From positions 64,001 through 128,000 of IMG/VR virus record IMGVR_UViG_3300018933_000001: a DNA stretch of 64,000 nt; one strand, 5' to 3'. The stretch comes from a virus. The translations under genes and the position numbers were made by a program. The notes beneath the pieces are model-generated. The model was not told where the DNA came from. It did not search any database and saw only the letters and a list, made by a program, of their open reading frames with translations. This document shows, piece after piece, positions 4,604-41,406 of this stretch (positions are counted from its first letter, which is position 1; each line of letters starts with the position of its first letter).

Positions 4604-5497
4604 GTGGATATATTAGATTTATTTAAGCAACGATTCGACTATATAAGAGAAGTTCCTTCTGAATTAGAGTATAGATGTCCCTTTTGTAATAATGAAGGAC
4701 TTAAGATAAATAAATTTACAGGTAAATATGACCTTTATAACTGTAGATGTGATGTCAAGAGAATATATCCTTACTTAACTAAGGATTCTGATACTCCTTA
4801 TGTACCTAAACTGAGACAAGTACCTAAGATAATAGAACCAGTACCTAATCTACTAGACGTTAAGCTAGCTACTATTACTAATTCATCTTCAGTAACAGAC
4901 CTCAATGACAAGTATAGGAACTTAGATGGTGAAGTAGTGTACAAGCATTCTAACTACCAAAGAGCTAAGAGGATTAATAGAGTTAGGTCTACTGGTAAGA
5001 AAATAGTCATACCCCAAGTCCTTATTAAAGGTAGTTGGGTTAATGGTATAGGAGAAGGTACATTTCCACTATTTACTAATCAAAGAACATTATTAGGAGA
5101 ACTAATAATAGTAGTGGAGGGGCAGAAGTGTGTTGAGTACCTTAACTATAAGCAGATAGAAGCAATTAGTTTATTGGGTAGTTACACAACATCTATTACT
5201 AAGATACAAGAAGTAATAGATATAAGTAGGAGTTTAGTACCTAATGTTAAACAGTTTCTTTATCTACCTGACCTAGATGCAGTTGGATTAAACAAAGCGC
5301 TTATATTTCAAAAAGCAGTATGGGAGATGAAATTACCTTGCAAGATATTTGATTTAAGAACTAAGTTGTTAGAACCTAAAGGGTGTGGACTAGATTTTAA
5401 AAGAGGTTATGACGTGGCAGATTATATATTAGAGTTTCCTGATAGTAACCTAGTGAGTGTATTGGAAGATGAGTTCAGAGATACAAGTAGATATTAA
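4604..5497 (+). CDS. DNA primase (Zn finger + TOPRIM)
   Basis: CPFC...CRC zinc motif; IVVEGQKC, LPDLDAVG, GYDVAD TOPRIM motifs. Confidence 0.85.
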   Translation: MDILDLFKQRFDYIREVPSELEYRCPFCNNEGLKINKFTGKYDLYNCRCDVKRIYPYLTKDSDTPYVPKLRQVPKIIEPVPNLLDVKLATITNSSSVTDLNDKYRNLDGEVVYKHSNYQRAKRINRVRSTGKKIVIPQVLIKGSWVNGIGEGTFPLFTNQRTLLGELIIVVEGQKCVEYLNYKQIEAISLLGSYTTSITKIQEVIDISRSLVPNVKQFLYLPDLDAVGLNKALIFQKAVWEMKLPCKIFDLRTKLLEPKGCGLDFKRGYDVADYILEFPDSNLVSVLEDEFRDTSRY

Positions 5498-6872
5498 GAT
5501 AAGTGAGATAAAAGAACAGTATCTTCAAGCATTAGATAACTTACATCTAAAAGCGGAAGAAGAAATTCTTGATGAAGTAGATTTAGAATACGCATTAGAT
5601 AAGATACACAAGGTATATGGAGTTAATCTAGGAGTCAAAGATACTCAGACGGTCACAAGACATTATCTTAGTAGAAGGAACACTACTCTAGATGTTAAGA
5701 AATACTACACTATTAAGGAAGTAATCAACTTTAAGAACAATGAGCTTACTGGTTCTATTGTTCCTAGATTAGTTCCTACTGGAGTAACTATTATAAGAGC
5801 GCCTGCTAAGCAAGGTAAAAGTAGATTAATATATGCTCTACTTAAGTCTATCTATATTACTAAGGAGTTTCTAGGTCTTCCTACTAGGAGATGTGGGATT
5901 ACTATTGTCTATCAAGCTGAAGAACCTATGACTATAGTAAGAAATAGATTCCTTAGTAATAGATTTGATGATGATGATAATCCAGATGTACGTGACTTAA
6001 TAGAAAACGATAAGATAATTATTGTTAGACAAATTAACATTGCTAAAGGTATTGACCAGATAAAGAGAGATGTCAGGAAGTTCTCTAAGAAACACAAAGT
6101 AGATTTAATAGTAGTAGATACGCTAAGAGCTGCTATGAGGTCTGCTAGTGTATCTGAGAACAGTGCAGATTGGGCTAATCCTTCTGGACTTCTGCAAGAT
6201 TATGCTAATGGACAAAATATAGCTATTATATTACTACATCACCATAACAAGAACGGTAAATCCTCAGGTACATCTGCTCTTGACGGTAATGCTAATATGC
6301 TTTGGGATGTTACTTACTATGAAGGTGAGAAATATTCTAAGAAGTCTCTAGTAATAAAGACTACTCCTAGAGATGGTACAGGAGCTAGCTTTGTAGTTGA
6401 TTTTAAGAAAGACCTTAAGTTGTTAGAAGAGGAAGGAGTAACACCTGACCTTACCACATTAGAAGTTAAGATAATCAACTTATTAAAGCAAGAGGAGAAC
6501 AGAGAAGGAGTAGTGGACTTAGGTTTATCAGTGGAGGAATTAGCAGAACAACTAGGAGTAGAAAGTATTGAGAAGCTAGAGTTAGCCTTAGATAGACTAC
6601 TTGAGAGTTCTTTCTTAGAGAGTAATAGAAGTAAAGGTAGGAACTTCTACTATATTCCTAACTACATCCTAGAGTTATATGGTGACTTAGGTATATTAGG
6701 TAAAGCAGAAGAACTAGACTTAAGACTTCAGGATATCTCAGTTCAAGTACAGTCAGCTACTACTAAGCAAGAGTTTTTAGATGCTTTTAAAGGAATGACT
6801 GTTAGAGATAAAGAAGTTGTGTTCAGACTTCTACCAGTTGAAGAACAAGAACGTTTAAAATCACTAACATAA
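5457..6872 (+). CDS. RepA/AAA_25-type replicative helicase with C-terminal winged helix
   Basis: Walker A APAKQGKS, AEE, Walker B IVVDTL, LLHHHNK; follows primase. Confidence 0.85.
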   Translation: MYWKMSSEIQVDIKISEIKEQYLQALDNLHLKAEEEILDEVDLEYALDKIHKVYGVNLGVKDTQTVTRHYLSRRNTTLDVKKYYTIKEVINFKNNELTGSIVPRLVPTGVTIIRAPAKQGKSRLIYALLKSIYITKEFLGLPTRRCGITIVYQAEEPMTIVRNRFLSNRFDDDDNPDVRDLIENDKIIIVRQINIAKGIDQIKRDVRKFSKKHKVDLIVVDTLRAAMRSASVSENSADWANPSGLLQDYANGQNIAIILLHHHNKNGKSSGTSALDGNANMLWDVTYYEGEKYSKKSLVIKTTPRDGTGASFVVDFKKDLKLLEEEGVTPDLTTLEVKIINLLKQEENREGVVDLGLSVEELAEQLGVESIEKLELALDRLLESSFLESNRSKGRNFYYIPNYILELYGDLGILGKAEELDLRLQDISVQVQSATTKQEFLDAFKGMTVRDKEVVFRLLPVEEQERLKSLT

Positions 6873-9526: not shown

Positions 9527-11695
9527 ATGAAAACACTACAGCTCAAGTGGAGTGATATATTAGCTCCTGAAGTAGAACTTAATCCTAACATCATAGTAGA
9601 AGGTAAAGTAGGAAAGGAAATATGGGATAACTGGGTAGAAGTATTCTCTAAAGCTAAGATGTTCTCTCTTGACCTTGAGACTCATGGGGATGAAGAATAT
9701 TCTGCTCTATATTTCAGATTTGGGTTGATAAGACTAATATCAGTTGGGATAAAGGTAGATGGTAACTATTATGCTCTTATTTATGACTTAGGAGGAAATT
9801 TAGATGATATAGATGAGAGAAAGAAAGAGTTCCTTAATAGTAGGTTTTATCAGGTACTTAAAGAGAGATGTGAGAACCTAAAAGTACCAGTAGTAGGAGT
9901 TAACCTAAAGTTTGATGGTAACTTTCTACTTTATCATTTAGGTATTAAGATTCTTACTTGCCGAGATTTAATGCTATGTTCTCAAGTTATCTGGGCAGGT
10001 ATCGAAGTAATATCTACTAAAGAGAAAACTGATAGTGGAAGTAGTAGAGTTAAAGATAGAAAAGATAGGTGTCTCCTAGGTCATTCACTTAAAGGGATAA
10101 CAGAAAGAATCAATATACTTTACAACACTTCTTTTACTATTGATAAGACAGAGCAGAAAGAAGATTGGGGTTGGAGAATATCAAATGCTAAACTTAACTA
10201 CTCAGGAAATGACAGTATCTTACCTCTTCAACTATTTCCTTATATCCAGCAGTTAGTAGTAGAAAATGGACTTTACTATTCGGTAATGGCGGAGTGTCTC
10301 GCTTTACCTGCATTTATAGAGATGGAAGTATTTGGTTTTCCTATTGATAAAGAGTTGTTAGAGAAGAATCTTAGTATTTATAGAGCTAAATTTGATGAAT
10401 ATAACACTCTAGTATCTACTACATTTCCTGGGGTTAACTGGTCGCAAACAGAACAACTAAGACAAGCTTTTAATACGAAATGGGAAGACTTAAAGTTATT
10501 GTCGATGAATGATGAAGCTTTAAAGTCAGTAGAACATCCAGAAGCACAAGCATTACTCAAAATGCGTACTTTAAACGTACTCATTAATTACATGGAAGGT
10601 ATTAACAACACAGCTTGGAAAAATGAAGGAGAAGATTTCTACTCTGTTAGAACTATCTACAATCAGATATCTGCTAGTGGAAGTGGTAGAAGTTCCTGTA
10701 CTGGTGCATTAAGTTATAAAAGCAGTAAAGGTAGTAGAAAGAAGATTGATGTAGGAACTCAGTTACAAAATCCAGCTAAGACTCCTGCTTGGTTTACTGA
10801 TGAAGGTTTACCCGAGTTTAGGACGTTCTTTGCAGCTCCAGAAAGTTACTCATTAGGAATTATTGACTTATCTGCCAGTCACTACCGAATATGTACTGAA
10901 CTAAGTCAAGACCCTGTTCTATTAGATATTTACTTAAATGATAGAGATGCTCATTTAATTATGGCTCATACCATTGTCAAATTAGATGGTGCAGATGTAA
11001 CTTTTGATGAGTTTCAGAAATTATATAAAAAAGAGAAAGAAGCTAAAACAGAAGGTTGGGTTTCTGATAATAGAAAGAAAGGTAAAATAACCAATTATAG
11101 TGGACTCAATCAGGCAGGTGCATTTAAGTTACAGCAGACATTTAAAGGTTGGGGAGTAATAATATCTCTGGAAGAAGCTAAGAAACTTAAGAAGGCTTAT
11201 AAAGAAACATATAAGAGATTAGACCAGTTTATCCAGAATTATATAAAAGAATCTAATAGTTATAATATCGAGTTTCCTTTTTATAACCTTTACGGACAAC
11301 CAACTACTGGACATTACGGTAAATGCAAAACTTTTACTAACCGAACTGTTCATTTAAAGAAACAAGAGAAGCACAGTGAATGGGGAACTAAATATGAGAT
11401 TCCTTATACTGAATCTATTTCTTTAATTTGGCTTTGTGGAGAAGCTGATATTATCAAGTTCTCGCAGGGAATAGCCGTTATCCAATTCTTTTTACATCCG
11501 GAATGGAAAGCAAGATTTATCAATAATTGTCATGATGAGTTGGATTGGATGAATAAATGTGAGTTTTCTTTTGAAGCTAATAGTGTGGTGATGAGTAGCG
11601 TCCACGAACAAATGGGTACTTGGATTAAGTCTATTCCCGTAGATACTGATTTTGATCCAAATAAACTAACCGTTCAAAACTGGAATGAGAAATAA
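9527..11695 (+). CDS. polA: family A DNA polymerase with 3'-5' exonuclease
   Basis: Exo I DLET, Exo II NLKFD, Exo III YSGND; QLQNP, motif A DLSASHYR, motif B RKKGKITNY, motif C HDEL. Confidence 0.92.
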   Translation: MKTLQLKWSDILAPEVELNPNIIVEGKVGKEIWDNWVEVFSKAKMFSLDLETHGDEEYSALYFRFGLIRLISVGIKVDGNYYALIYDLGGNLDDIDERKKEFLNSRFYQVLKERCENLKVPVVGVNLKFDGNFLLYHLGIKILTCRDLMLCSQVIWAGIEVISTKEKTDSGSSRVKDRKDRCLLGHSLKGITERINILYNTSFTIDKTEQKEDWGWRISNAKLNYSGNDSILPLQLFPYIQQLVVENGLYYSVMAECLALPAFIEMEVFGFPIDKELLEKNLSIYRAKFDEYNTLVSTTFPGVNWSQTEQLRQAFNTKWEDLKLLSMNDEALKSVEHPEAQALLKMRTLNVLINYMEGINNTAWKNEGEDFYSVRTIYNQISASGSGRSSCTGALSYKSSKGSRKKIDVGTQLQNPAKTPAWFTDEGLPEFRTFFAAPESYSLGIIDLSASHYRICTELSQDPVLLDIYLNDRDAHLIMAHTIVKLDGADVTFDEFQKLYKKEKEAKTEGWVSDNRKKGKITNYSGLNQAGAFKLQQTFKGWGVIISLEEAKKLKKAYKETYKRLDQFIQNYIKESNSYNIEFPFYNLYGQPTTGHYGKCKTFTNRTVHLKKQEKHSEWGTKYEIPYTESISLIWLCGEADIIKFSQGIAVIQFFLHPEWKARFINNCHDELDWMNKCEFSFEANSVVMSSVHEQMGTWIKSIPVDTDFDPNKLTVQNWNEK

Positions 11696-26574: not shown

Positions 26575-26667
26575 TTTTTAAATAACTAATAGGAAGAGGT
26601 AGATTATTATTCAAGATATTTTTAGATTCTTTTCTAAATTTAACTGAAATAATAACTTACCATCCTC

Positions 26668-26730
26668 ACTGCTACTTTTTTATTAATCTCTGGGTATACC
26701 GACTTTAGAGATTCTAAAAAATTACCGCAA
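26668..26730. repeat. left 63-bp inverted repeat / palindromic site
   Basis: actgctacttttttattaatct-N19-agattctaaaaaattaccgcaa; abuts stop codon of helicase-like gene. Confidence 0.8.
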
Positions 26731-28518
26731 TTATTCTTCTAAGATTTCCATAACTTTAACTGTCTTTCCATCTATCCGGATACTCTTAGTTCTAGTAGAG
26801 CAATACTGAGTAACATCGCTAGCCTTACCTTTCTTGCTTAGATGTAATCGAGTATAAACGTCATTAACTACAGTTTTGAGATGAGGTAGAGTATAAACCT
26901 CTCCTACTACTAACAATCTGTTTAACTCAGATTTGATACACTGTTGAATATCTACGTTTTTAAACTTGAGTTCGTTCTTAAGTCTATCAGGTAGATAGTT
27001 AACAGCTTTCATTCTCTCAGCACCTAGCTGCTCATAACTTTCTTTGATGAGGGGGAATCTATCTCCTAAATAGACCCTCTCATTTTCATTTTCTATATAA
27101 CTAATGCAATTAGACTTAAAAGACTTACTGCTCAATCTATGAATAAAGCTATTCTCATTCTGAACGTTAACAAAGTCTTGGTCGTTAGCTAGTTCAAATC
27201 CAGCTTCAACATAAGCTTCTCTAACACTCAGACCATCATGATAAACGTTACTAGAGACTTCCCATCTTCTCTTATCATTGAGCATCATATACTTATTGAA
27301 GTAGAGTTCTCCATCTGTTCCTTTACTAATATAATTGTCATCAGAATAGCCGTATCTAGTATTGCTTTCCCAGTCTATTAAAAAAGCTTTCTGTTCAGAC
27401 TCATTACCTTTATGATAGAGAGATAGTAGATTAGTAGTTTGCTCTACTTTGGTTTTAATTAATTCATCAAACTCTTCTTGAGATAGCAAGCTAGCATCAG
27501 TATTATAAAGATGATAAATTTCCTTTCTGAACGGATTAGTAAGAGTTCTGATTCTACCAGCTATCTGTCTAATATCTGTATCAATACTAATTAAAGTGTT
27601 CTTATTTTGAGTGTTACTAACGACGTAGATAACTCCAGTTTCAGAATAGAAGTCGCATCCTTTAAATGCAGTAGATGTAATAAAGTTGAATTTCTTCTCT
27701 GGGTCAAGTGCTTTCTCTATCTGAAATATATCCATCTTGCTTTGGTTGACTTTGTTGTTAGCACAAATAACTCTAACTTCACTAGGACGTAAATCAGCAG
27801 CTTCAATGATGTTTAGAATAGAGTTAACTGAATTAACAAAGAAATAAGCAGATTTTGAATAATGACCGTTAGGCATTTTAATACCTTCATCACCAGCAGC
27901 TTTATAAGCTTCAATAATATTACAAGCTAACTGGTAAGGTTTATTAGTTTTCTTGCGTTCTACTTTGACTTTGGTGTATTCTCCCCAGTTAATCTGATAC
28001 TCATCTAATCCTTTCAAACATTCAGGATAATACTCAGACTTAATAGGAGTAGCAGAAATATAAGTAACATAATCAAATTCTTGAACTGAATTTAACAATC
28101 TATCTATTGCAGCATCTCTATATGAGTAAGCGTCTAGCAAATCAGAAAACTCATCTACTAAAACTCTGTATTTATCTTTGTTATTAGAAGATAACAGTCT
28201 CGAAACTCTATCAAAACTATCATAAGTAACCATTATCTTTGGGACTTTAGTAGTGTTGATATAGCTAACTAAATCTCTCTCTTTAATACCACCATAAAAA
28301 CCAAATATCTTCTCAGCTCTCCTTTTATTTGGATACTGGTCTACTTTGTTTCTAATTATCTCAATAGTGGGAACTGCTAAGATATAGGGGTTTTGGTCTT
28401 CAAGAGCTAATACTGATGCTCCTACACCAGTTTCGTGTTTATCAATTATACCTTTTGGTAGTTCAGTCATAAACTCTGAACAGTAACGGGAATTAGGAGG
28501 TGCGTCGATGATTATCAT
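26731..28518 (-). CDS. SF2 helicase-like protein (origin-binding-protein-like), degenerate Walker A
   Basis: TGVGAS (no Lys), LAVPT, TYDS, VLVDEF, ISATP, FFVNS, TSTAFKGCD, QIAGRIR. Confidence 0.8.
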   Translation of the reverse strand: MIIIDAPPNSRYCSEFMTELPKGIIDKHETGVGASVLALEDQNPYILAVPTIEIIRNKVDQYPNKRRAEKIFGFYGGIKERDLVSYINTTKVPKIMVTYDSFDRVSRLLSSNNKDKYRVLVDEFSDLLDAYSYRDAAIDRLLNSVQEFDYVTYISATPIKSEYYPECLKGLDEYQINWGEYTKVKVERKKTNKPYQLACNIIEAYKAAGDEGIKMPNGHYSKSAYFFVNSVNSILNIIEAADLRPSEVRVICANNKVNQSKMDIFQIEKALDPEKKFNFITSTAFKGCDFYSETGVIYVVSNTQNKNTLISIDTDIRQIAGRIRTLTNPFRKEIYHLYNTDASLLSQEEFDELIKTKVEQTTNLLSLYHKGNESEQKAFLIDWESNTRYGYSDDNYISKGTDGELYFNKYMMLNDKRRWEVSSNVYHDGLSVREAYVEAGFELANDQDFVNVQNENSFIHRLSSKSFKSNCISYIENENERVYLGDRFPLIKESYEQLGAERMKAVNYLPDRLKNELKFKNVDIQQCIKSELNRLLVVGEVYTLPHLKTVVNDVYTRLHLSKKGKASDVTQYCSTRTKSIRIDGKTVKVMEILEE

Positions 28519-28547
28519 TGAGTTGCGGAAGTTTTGTTTACAACTCT

Positions 28548-28556
28548 ATTGTATCA
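28548..28556 (-). promoter_or_regulatory. extended -10 promoter TGATACAAT for helicase-like gene
   Basis: TGn-TACAAT 30 nt upstream of start, between two repeat half-sites. Confidence 0.6.
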
Positions 28557-28589
28557 GAGATTATTTAAAAAGTAGCATCTTAAGAGAAT

Positions 28590-28652
28590 TTGCGGAACTT
28601 TTTATTAATCTGTGGGTTTAGTGGATTTAGCCAGTAATAAAAAAGTAACAGT
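28590..28652. repeat. right 63-bp inverted repeat / palindromic site
   Basis: Reverse complement actgttacttttttattactgg-N19-agattaataaaaagttccgcaa aligns ungapped with 26668-26730. Confidence 0.8.
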
Positions 28653-28985: not shown

Positions 28986-28987
28986 AC

Positions 28988-29166
28988 AATAGTGGAGTGT
29001 AGACTTTTTCTAAAATTTGTACTTACATATAGTCCGCAGATTTCAAGAAATGTCTACATTCTATTTTTGACCCGAAAGTTAAAATAAATAGCTTATAAGT
29101 GAGGTACGAGCTAAATACAGAGTAGAGGATTAATAAATTGTGTCAGTCCTTAGAAATTTATTCTAA
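28988..29166. other. non-coding cluster of five consecutive hairpins, including a third copy of the palindromic site (29003-29052)
   Basis: Stems gagtgtagac/gtctacattc, ttttgac/gttaaaa, tagct/agcta, aggatt/agtcct, ttagaa/ttctaa. Confidence 0.55.
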
Positions 29167-29276: not shown

Positions 29277-29348
29277 GGAACCTTGACATAGTGGTTGTGT
29301 AGCTGGCTTTTAACCAGTGTTAGGAAGGTTCGATTCCTTCAGGTTCCA
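29277..29348 (+). tRNA. tRNA-Lys (TTT)
   Basis: GGAACCT/AGGTTCC acceptor, GCTGG-CTTTTAA-CCAGT anticodon arm, GAAGG-TTCGATT-CCTTC T arm; CCA not encoded. Confidence 0.92.
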
Positions 29349-39632: not shown

Positions 39633-40952
39633 TTACATGGAGGGAGAGATTTGGCTTTGTTGCTCTATCTGCTTCAAAGCCTTTGCTTCTTCTATTTCTT
39701 GTTCAGTTTGAAGAGGTAACCCTAATAAACCTCTAATCCTATTATTAATTACAGGGTCATCTCCACTAAGAATCCCCATTGAAACAGCAGTAAAGATATT
39801 TTGTAATTGCTGCATTTCTACTCCAGGGTCTGAAGAAGAATCAATGGTAAATTTACCGTAATCTTTCTGTTTGCCAAAGTTGTTAATAATTATTGGTTTA
39901 CAGACTTTCTCAATAATTTGGTCTTGAATCTGATTTACTACTACTTCTATATTTGCGTCTAAAAGAGTAGACTGCTTTACGGATAGTGTTGCTACCCCGA
40001 TTGAACCACTACCTTCTTCAAATATTAATACTGGAACCCCAAATGCTCTGTGGATGTTCTTATTCAGTTCTGTTAATGCAAAGTTCCAAGAAGGGCTTCC
40101 GTCAGATACATTAAGAGCAGTGACATTATTAGCTTTATCTGTGACGATGATTGCGTTGTTTTCTACATTAGCTAGTTTTTCATACATTACTTGAGCTGCA
40201 TTTTTCCTCAAAGGTTGATTGTCTCTTCCCATTAAAGGCTTACCATAAGCATCAGTAACAGTAGCATTGATAGTAGCAGCACTATCTACTTGAGCAAATA
40301 GAATACCAGTAGATAAGTTCTTAATAGATACAATCATGTCAGCTAGAACTGCTATTTTAGCTTTCCAGAATGGATATGCAATTGCAGCTTCGGCTTTTCC
40401 AAACGGGTCATTGAATATAGTAGCAGCAGAATTAGTTACATGGATGATTTTTTTATATGGAATAGGAATGTTAGATTTAGCTCTATCGTTGTAAATTACA
40501 TATTCAATATATCCTTTTGAACCTTTAAACTTTACTCTTTCTAAGCTTAGTGGATAAATGCTTTCTAGTTTTAGATAACCTTGTTTATCTAATCTGAAGT
40601 TAATTTCTGCTACTGAAAATCCTAATGCTGGGGCAATAGCTAATTCTGATACTGCTTTCTTTAGAGTATCCCGCATATTACCAAACATTTCTTGAAGAAA
40701 ATCAGTTATTTCCGGCTTAGTATGTTGGTATACACCAAATATATTAGCAGCTCTCAAACACTTAATATCTACGCAAGCTTTTGCTATTGGGTCTTTATGG
40801 AGAAAATGTAGAAGTTCAGTAATAGAATGTGTTCCATCCCAACTAATCTCTTGAATAGTAGAATCAGATAATTTAGATATTTTAGAAGAATGATTCGTAG
40901 TATAAAGCTGTTCTTCAAATTGTCTTGTAGGTTGAGGATTACGTGATTTCAT
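39633..40952 (-). CDS. phage portal protein (Mu gp29/DUF935-like)
   Basis: GFSVAEI, K.IH...DPFG, IQDQII..PII..NFG; 439 aa. Confidence 0.75.
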   Translation of the reverse strand: MKSRNPQPTRQFEEQLYTTNHSSKISKLSDSTIQEISWDGTHSITELLHFLHKDPIAKACVDIKCLRAANIFGVYQHTKPEITDFLQEMFGNMRDTLKKAVSELAIAPALGFSVAEINFRLDKQGYLKLESIYPLSLERVKFKGSKGYIEYVIYNDRAKSNIPIPYKKIIHVTNSAATIFNDPFGKAEAAIAYPFWKAKIAVLADMIVSIKNLSTGILFAQVDSAATINATVTDAYGKPLMGRDNQPLRKNAAQVMYEKLANVENNAIIVTDKANNVTALNVSDGSPSWNFALTELNKNIHRAFGVPVLIFEEGSGSIGVATLSVKQSTLLDANIEVVVNQIQDQIIEKVCKPIIINNFGKQKDYGKFTIDSSSDPGVEMQQLQNIFTAVSMGILSGDDPVINNRIRGLLGLPLQTEQEIEEAKALKQIEQQSQISPSM

Positions 40953-40989: not shown

Positions 40990-41010
40990 TGAAATGAGTA
41001 GAGGTAAATT

Positions 41011-41394
41011 ATGGGATGTTACGTTCGGTTTTCATTAGATATTAAGTTAAAACTAGATACTCCTAGAGAAGTTGTAGACGTTTTAAAATACGCTCTACCA
41101 AGAAAAGCTAGTAGGTCTAAAAAGATAGAATTACCTGACCACAGATTTTTTAAAAATCCTGATTGGTATTTTACTTTAGGATGTAGCAATGATTTAGAAA
41201 TACCAAGATTGAGAAAACTTAGAGGAAAAGACAAAGGTTATAGTTTGAATATCTATTCAGAATTTAAAGAGAATTGGGGAAGTGAATATAGATTTATTAA
41301 TTGGATAGAACCTTATTTAGACCATTTACCGGGAGAGGTTTTAGGTTGGAGAGAAGATGATTATAATGAACGGACTGTTATTAAAAAGAAATAA
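41011..41394 (+). CDS. conserved phage hypothetical protein
   Basis: MG.Y....L...LK.DTP..V..VL...LPDH.FF, F..WI.PY. Confidence 0.7.
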   Translation: MGCYVRFSLDIKLKLDTPREVVDVLKYALPRKASRSKKIELPDHRFFKNPDWYFTLGCSNDLEIPRLRKLRGKDKGYSLNIYSEFKENWGSEYRFINWIEPYLDHLPGEVLGWREDDYNERTVIKKK

Positions 41395-41406
41395 GGTGAT
41401 TAAATT

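Follow-up and report, generated by a model that had tools for sequence, protein, structure and literature searches.

Matching elements flank a family of helicase-like phage genes that may encode cassette-borne replication initiators

We describe a helicase-like gene, together with the sequence elements that surround it, in IMG/VR virus record IMGVR_UViG_3300018933_000001 (146,537 bp with direct terminal repeats; denoted G000 here), a genome that probably belongs to an uncultured cyanophage. The stretch analysed, termed the window, comprises 64,000 nucleotides (nt; bases 64001-128000 of the record; 32% G+C), and coordinates refer to it unless a genome or locus is named. Nearly all genes of the window lie on the plus strand; the gene in question (26731-28518) lies on the minus strand, encodes 595 amino acids (aa), and is accompanied by three related elements, one directly past its stop codon and two upstream of its start. 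Matching flanking elements are a property of the gene family to which it belongs, and occur on both flanks in most copies. These sites are found only around their own gene, the protein is constrained as strongly as the replicative helicase, and at least one family copy is present in 8 of 8 related phage records checked; a cis-acting initiator accompanied by its origin is therefore the best explanation we can offer. Judged from sequence, the protein looks most like a putative initiator of a new SF2-type family, and the cassette may combine an origin-binding initiator that regulates its own expression with the sites cognate to it, and may pass between phages as a unit, a reading that we place first while rating it slightly below an even chance.

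Results

Three elements surround a solitary minus-strand gene

The first-pass annotation of this DNA had described the gene as the only one on the minus strand in about 30 kb, its stop codon abutting a 63-bp element that aligns ungapped with an inverted counterpart upstream. These features are borne out. No other minus-strand open reading frame (ORF) of at least 150 aa lies between positions 1 and 39632; element E3 (26668-26730) begins directly past the end of the gene; and E3 agrees without gaps at 42 of 63 positions with the reverse complement of E1 (28590-28652), the distal upstream copy, situated between a divergent gene pair. By comparison, 63-mers taken across the window match at a mean of 17.9 positions (sd 3.6), and the runner-up among about 128,000 positions reaches 35.

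Half-sites had also been noted at 28523 and about 28567, around the -10 region of the gene. They are present as described, yet the region proves to be a full third element, E2 (28519-28577), so that the cassette has three elements rather than two. E2 stands immediately upstream of the ATG, in tandem with E1 and in the same orientation, and E3 is inverted relative to both. The sequence TTGCGGAA has exact matches only at 28523 and 28590, with a variant, TTGCGGTA, at 26723 on the minus strand, and AAAAAGTAGCA is present again at 28567-28577. E3 is delimited by a left box, ACTGCTACTTTTTT, and a right box, TTACCGCAA; between its left arm and E2 there is a 23-nt inverted match (91% complementary).

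The arms and centres of E1 and E3 are related in opposite senses, as the annotation had proposed in describing direct cores within inverted arms: the arms match when inverted (17 of 18 positions for the outermost 18 nt, and 13 of 18), whereas for the 27-nt centre the direct orientation gives the better agreement (18/27, against 12/27 when inverted). Its further claim that each element is itself palindromic applies to E3 only, whose AATCT/AGATT palindrome the 95%-identical ortholog has not retained. No target-site duplication had been seen, and we find none: the sequences bordering the cassette (...CATCCTC and AAAAAGG...) have nothing in common.

Alignment of six elements, three from G000 and three from its sister phage (G001), defined an invariant left box, TG-Y-TACTTTTT (TGYTACTTTTT), and an invariant right box, T-W-CCGCA (TWCCGCA). 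About 7 of 63 positions distinguish E1 from its counterpart beside the G001 ortholog, compared with 27% of four-fold degenerate sites, and the boxes are conserved above this neutral level. The long box of the cassette has no occurrence elsewhere in the 146-kb genome. The two boxes of E2 bracket a promoter: an extended -10, TGATACAAT (28548-28556, minus strand), lies between them, with a predicted transcription start near 28541. A consensus promoter scan omits this -10, its -35 being poor; TGnTATAAT or TATAAT motifs comparable to it are present in the upstream element of most homologs. Because the -10 sits between two boxes, autoregulation through E2 is plausible.

Several more familiar interpretations of the elements were considered and set aside. 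As RNA hairpins or terminators, all of them fold weakly on both strands (z -0.8 to -2.6), and a consensus scan returned no terminator; a bidirectional terminator fails as an explanation because a T-run precedes an A-run in each element, the opposite order. A general phage promoter or regulon motif is not indicated, since the window contains 11 occurrences of the 16-mer against an expected 7.8, which is no enrichment, and the long box is confined to the cassette. An attL/attR-type product of integration would not account for elements that are inverted rather than direct, for a phage locus devoid of an integrase, or for boundaries in relatives that fail to fit.

Matching flanks recur throughout the gene family

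Homology searches retrieved 464 matches bearing only the names "hypothetical" or "DEAD/DEAH box helicase family", the closest cellular homologs occurring in Pseudanabaena. The flanks of homologs, whose comparison the first-pass annotation had suggested as a check, were surveyed at 41 viral, 11 genomic and 3 metagenomic loci, and matching sites were found in most copies. When the best local match between the 200 nt upstream and the 150 nt downstream was scored, 11 of 20 loci exceeded the 95th percentile of non-cognate pairs, and cognate flanks scored higher than non-cognate ones overall (Mann-Whitney p = 3e-5). When the 268 genes of 150 aa or more in G000, G001 and the related phage record G002 were all ranked by the match between their upstream and downstream flanks, family copies took ranks 1, 2, 4, 5, 6, 7, 10 and 13; eight of the ten copies in these genomes thus fall within the top 13.

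The elements of individual copies differ in sequence and form. G000 carries, outside the window and 70 kb away, a paralog that is 42% identical (genome 20141-21817, minus strand), with palindromes of the form GTTACTTTTT...AAAAAGTAAC, about 55 nt long, on both flanks. The motif GYTACTTTTT occurs nine times in this genome, six of them within the four flanking elements. Inverted repeats are likewise present at other copies, being perfect over 31 nt at locus L010 and over 26 nt at L008, and 83% matched over 36 nt at the G001 copy located at 19 kb. Box sequences vary by lineage, as illustrated by GACATA arms in L005 and L006 and by a CCAGAGATTTAT box on both sides of L086. Copy number varies as well: G001 has three copies, G002 has five full copies and, in addition, three C-terminal fragments (two belonging to the GIY-YIG fusion genes described below), and a single copy was found in each of the related records G004 (95% complete) and G005 (100% complete).

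In Pseudanabaena sp. lw0831 a phage-type tyrosine integrase immediately precedes the homolog (43% identity), which lies beside a host response-regulator gene (L074:4556-7716) and is therefore likely to be part of an integrated element; the slot directly after the integrase is the usual position of an island's replication gene.

Two cultured phages provide a separate observation. In Acinetobacter phage Phab24 and Psychrobacter phage D'Alembert, a distant homolog is the first gene past a non-coding region of 0.9-1.35 kb that forms a divergence point (L072:2998-3920; L073:2589-3938). The D'Alembert homolog adjoins the terminal repeat, and an HNH endonuclease gene comes next.

Predicted structure of the 595-residue protein

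The protein had no match in Pfam (E ≤ 1), PHROGs, NCBIfam or PADLOC, or by sequence in the PDB; blastn against cultured phages gave no match, and the ESM Atlas annotation reads only "DEAD/DEAH helicase". When 25 family members were compared with Pfam, the matches obtained were weak ones to DEAD (5 members) or ResIII (2 members). The family, lacking a model in Pfam, PHROG, NCBIfam and PADLOC, is uncharacterised.

An AlphaFold model (predicted local distance difference test score, pLDDT, 83) depicts an SF2 core, a helical region and a winged helix, in that order. Residues 1-450 form the two-RecA SF2 core, which in a structural search of the model scored Z 16-20 to many SF2 helicases; Foldseek ranked first the UL9 protein of herpes simplex virus 1 (HSV-1) bound to oriS (E 3.8e-10). 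Of the helicase motifs, II (DEF/Y), III (SAT) and VI (QxxGRxR) are intact; motif I takes the form of a glycine loop without the canonical lysine, confirming an initial impression that Walker A lacks this residue: the variant P-loop reads K27-H-E-T-G-V-G-A-S35 (28414-28440, minus strand). The pattern K-x3-G-x-G-x-T/S is shared by all 25 aligned members and by the Phab24 and D'Alembert homologs, and a lysine four residues ahead of the first glycine is invariant family-wide.

The C-terminal module (residues 463-595; 26734-27132, minus strand) is presumed from its modelled fold to be a sequence-specific DNA-binding domain, the last 75 or so residues being a predicted winged helix. The C-terminal 256 residues, modelled alone (pLDDT 84), again end in a winged helix, to which a structural search matched the RFX DNA-binding domain (Z 5.9), DpnI and VanR (about 5), and the phage P4 origin-binding domain (4.6; PDB 1ka8). 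These scores are weak but consistent. Foldseek of the C-terminal domain returned nothing at E ≤ 0.001, and its best rows, at E 0.45 and weaker, included a few winged-helix-type chains. Neither a nuclease nor a recombinase domain was found in the protein by Pfam, PHROGs, NCBIfam, PADLOC or fold, GIY-YIG, HNH and LAGLIDADG domains being among those not found.

Conservation of the gene and turnover of cassettes

The orthologs in G000 and G001 are 94.6% identical as proteins, ranking third among 123 reciprocal best pairs (median 67%; the DnaB-like helicase 95.1%), while identity at their four-fold sites is 73%, which falls among the values for other genes (59-89%). High protein identity combined with ordinary four-fold divergence indicates strong purifying selection and not recent transfer; recent horizontal insertion was rejected as an explanation on the same grounds.

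Beyond this orthologous pair, the positions and identities of copies vary. The presence, absence and orientation of the cassette were compared among relatives, as the first-pass annotation had recommended. Loci and copies differ from genome to genome, and no switch of orientation was found at the G001 ortholog, where the cassette stands the same way round to its neighbors as in G000. The family tree has three deep clades, and in G001 the locus of the G000 paralog is occupied by a member of another clade. Where G001 has its copy at 90 kb, G000 has, between conserved neighbors, an unrelated plus-strand ORF of about 125 aa (40991-41406; genome 104991-105406). A G002 copy at 87 kb lies within a 4-kb insert at a place where G000 and G001 have 236-262 nt. 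Truncated C-terminal remnants accompany full copies in G002 (88969-89166; L069:8969-9166) and in the related record G006 (91381-92025); because such remnants belong to a different family member and lie directly downstream of the full copy, they suggest successive replacement of cassettes at one place. The boundaries of presence and absence in relatives do not coincide with the elements.

The 125-aa ORF of G000 adjoins a further minus-strand gene, a lone homolog of Mu-like portal proteins (39633-40952).

GIY-YIG nuclease genes that carry the C-terminal module

Two genes of G002 encode an N-terminal GIY-YIG domain (PF01541) fused to the C-terminal module of the family (L071:1039-1827 and L067:5067-5879, both on the minus strand); one of them is arranged tail-to-tail with a full family copy. 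The module of one chimera is 50% identical to the protein described here over 131 residues (E 2e-42), and is closer to the module of L086, a family member in another phage (73% identity), than to that of the closest copy in G002 itself (49%). In G001, a third GIY-YIG gene comes after the family copy at 19 kb. GIY-YIG domains were encountered only in separate chimeric or neighboring genes of G001 and G002. Because the G002 GIY-YIG proteins reuse residues 463-595 as a unit, this segment would appear to be a self-sufficient DNA-binding module. The chimeras are possibly nucleases directed against family sites, whether site-directed in the manner of Odn or of the homing type.

An adjoining hairpin with an inverted loop

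An AT-rich imperfect hairpin of 64 nt with 29-nt arms (26598-26661) adjoins E3. One full copy was found in each of four of nine phage records (G000, G001, G002 and the related record G008), always next to a family cassette. It contains a 40-nt stretch of 88% AT, within the top 0.1% of the genome, and is a candidate unwinding element or boundary structure. Between G000 and G001 (L004:6850-6925) the inner 36 nt or so are flipped and the arms are not (alignment score 90 flipped versus 66 unflipped). Inversion of a loop within a palindrome therefore occurs in these genomes, and provides a simple account of how E1 and E3 came to have direct cores within inverted arms.

Discussion

A proposed mechanism

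In the scheme we propose, the C-terminal module would read the boxes. Binding at E2 would shut off the promoter of the gene itself, and binding at E1 and E3, which may bridge the two flanks of the gene, would let the ATPase core open the DNA at or next to the elements, with the neighboring 88%-AT hairpin as a candidate location. Loading of the DnaB-like helicase and family-A polymerase, whose genes lie 15-20 kb upstream, could follow. Further initiator/site pairs would be provided by the second paralog in G000 and by the copies that number up to five per genome in relatives; recombination would swap whole cassettes between phages, and their diversification may be driven by GIY-YIG nucleases that acquired the C-terminal module by capture. 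Extended to the group, this scheme would have its cyanophages replicate from one to five interchangeable initiator/origin cassettes, each built on a hitherto undescribed SF2 family whose P-loop is lysine-shifted and whose winged helix serves as a portable reader of origins, with diversity and turnover driven by the origin-directed GIY-YIG nucleases of rivals: a phage-versus-phage version of the conflict between ICP1 Odn and PLE. We put this larger picture forward as speculation that may well prove wrong.

Several results weigh against an initiator/origin cassette. The G001 copy at 90 kb has an upstream element only, with an ordinary terminator downstream, and no significant flank match was obtained for its close relative in G002 at 119 kb or for several more distant loci; relatives in gut phages lack matching flanks. 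For one 130-kb phage to have as many as five initiator/origin pairs would be unusual. Of the 25 family members, none matched PF02399 (Herpes_ori_bp) at E ≤ 0.1, and the Foldseek match to UL9 is nearly tied with generic SF2 helicases, UL9 falling outside the top 50 when ranked by Z. Since the P-loop is devoid of the catalytic lysine, ATP hydrolysis may be altered or lost. Nor is composition of help: the elements are 68-70% AT, the intergenic mean being 68%, and GC skew drops to about zero only across the 595-aa gene, where strand inversion alone is visible. GC skew and AT content, examined as signals of an origin, accordingly yielded nothing beyond this strand flip. The earlier suggestion that an initiator and its own sites form a portable module thus retains the support of family-specific sites, an SF2 core with a winged helix, purifying selection and varying loci, but gains no skew signal and no unusual AT content apart from the hairpin.

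Alternative explanations

Of the alternatives, one that we regard as unlikely would assign the cassette to local control or insulation of transcription, with no part in replication. The protein would be an autorepressor, possibly a translocase that displaces or blocks RNA polymerase, and the sites would shield an antisense gene from plus-strand transcription. A promoter lying between the two E2 boxes suits this proposal, although a gene that regulates only itself is not expected to be as conserved as a replicative helicase, and the box is on no other target promoters. Every copy in G000 and G001 is antisense to its neighbors, yet three copies in G002 are co-oriented with theirs and still keep matching flanks. 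At L008, L010 and the G001 19-kb copy the promoter-bearing element recurs downstream in inverted form, where it could fire or block antisense transcription; the weak RNA folds noted above, and the finding of no terminator-like site, argue in the other direction.

We find it harder to credit a factor of competition or exclusion, one that binds or remodels cognate sites in co-infecting relatives or satellites, or guards its own sites from site-directed nucleases, the flanks being autoregulatory only and the paralogs a product of an arms race. Copy numbers from one to five and three deep clades could reflect such a history, but exactly one copy is retained in each of the two genomes of highest completeness, which better fits a core function. 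Sister phages do hold members of different clades at the same locus; the lineage of the gene described here is, however, vertical and strongly constrained between G000 and G001. GIY-YIG genes beside two copies, two GIY-YIG proteins bearing the family's DNA-binding module, and the placement of the cassette within a hypervariable region of small accessory ORFs would all be in character for a competition factor, against which stands the lack of any PADLOC match.

Least likely of the three, and in our estimation very improbable, is an autonomous mobile or invertible element, also raised in the first-pass annotation, in which the helicase-like protein would serve as a new transposase or invertase: the near-perfect inversion of the outermost 18 nt (17/18), the occurrence of copies at differing loci (the G001 90-kb copy replaced in G000; the G002 87-kb copy in its 4-kb insert) and the truncated C-terminal remnants beside full copies are outweighed by a protein for which searches gave no nuclease or recombinase, whether by domain or by fold, the lack of a target-site duplication, presence/absence boundaries lying off the elements, unchanged orientation at the orthologous G001 locus, four-fold sites as diverged as the rest of the genome (hence no recent insertion), and the position of E1 outside the promoter-bearing E2, which makes three elements rather than two ends.

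Comparison with known systems

An initiator accompanied by its sites has partial counterparts in several systems. As in iteron-type replicons, repeated sites specific to the putative initiator stand beside its gene, here as three elements whose long box is found nowhere else. One counterpart is UL9 with oriS/oriL of HSV-1 (PMC12543377): an N-terminal SF2 helicase precedes a sequence-specific DNA-binding domain at the C-terminus (in our case a predicted one), and inverted recognition boxes surround a spacer between divergent promoters. Unlike UL9, the cassette protein has no PF02399 match and no GK(T/S) lysine, its module is about 130 residues long and ends in a winged helix whereas the UL9 DNA-binding domain comprises 316 residues with an RVKNL motif, and its sites flank its own gene, with several divergent copies per genome. 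The phage T5 protein D2 is also an SF2 helicase, proposed through UL9 homology to act in replication initiation (PMC3632103), but it has a consensus Walker A and matches PF02399, and no sequence relation between D2 and the cassette family was detected. The premise, carried over from the first-pass annotation, that binding of D2 to palindromic sites is established does not hold, as PMC3632103 shows helicase activity and UL9 homology only.

Exchange of sites and their reader is described for PLE, the satellite of phage ICP1. In the PLE initiator RepA, the DNA-binding domain and semi-palindromic iterons of about 30 bp form an exchangeable, co-varying module, and the ICP1 nuclease Odn has copied this domain and cuts the PLE origin (PMC8263062). 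The GIY-YIG chimeras resemble Odn in joining a predicted nuclease of homing-endonuclease type to a captured domain of the putative initiator. The RepA_N domain differs in having an unrelated fold and an N-terminal position, and PLE is a satellite rather than the phage itself.

Flanking cis regions have precedents in replicons of satellites and plasmids. For phage P4 alpha, the required cis regions, ori and crr, lie on both sides of the gene. Self-contained cassettes in which a helicase-type initiator gene stands beside cognate repeats are represented by P4 alpha, by SaPI Rep/ori (PMC9371898) and by pRN1 orf904 (PMC4234260); in pRN1, too, required cis regions lie on both sides of the gene. The P4 origin-binding domain offers a further likeness, being the winged helix matched by the cassette protein's C-terminus. 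These initiators are SF3/AAA+-type proteins or primase-helicases, not SF2, and they belong to satellites or plasmids with one module each. Insertion-sequence (IS)-type transposons and Hin/Gin segments also present a single gene between inverted repeats, but no transposase or recombinase, target duplication or orientation polymorphism was found for the cassette.

Implications

To our knowledge, hardly any large cyanophage has a known replication origin or initiator. A gene family with recognisable cis sites of its own opens a direct way to map origins, to assay binding and to build minimal replicons for cyanobacterial genetics. If our preferred reading is true, bacteriophages would gain an SF2 type of initiator whose specificity is exchanged cassette by cassette. 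The one case known to us of nucleases shown to target origins is that of ICP1 acting on its satellite; the existence of the GIY-YIG chimeras suggests that competing phages, too, may use such nucleases against each other. A P-loop without its lysine, coupled with an invariant lysine upstream, also poses a biochemical question about the ATPase mechanism.

Genomic surroundings of the cassette

The replication functions invoked above are encoded upstream of the cassette in the window, comprising a DnaB/RecA-type AAA_25 helicase (5457-6872) and a family-A DNA polymerase (9527-11695); a ribonucleotide reductase is also encoded upstream. On the other side, a tRNA-Lys(UUU) gene (29277-29348) lies 625 nt to the right of E1, and between a 100-aa ORF and this tRNA gene there is an imperfect inverted repeat with 33-nt arms (28987-29069).

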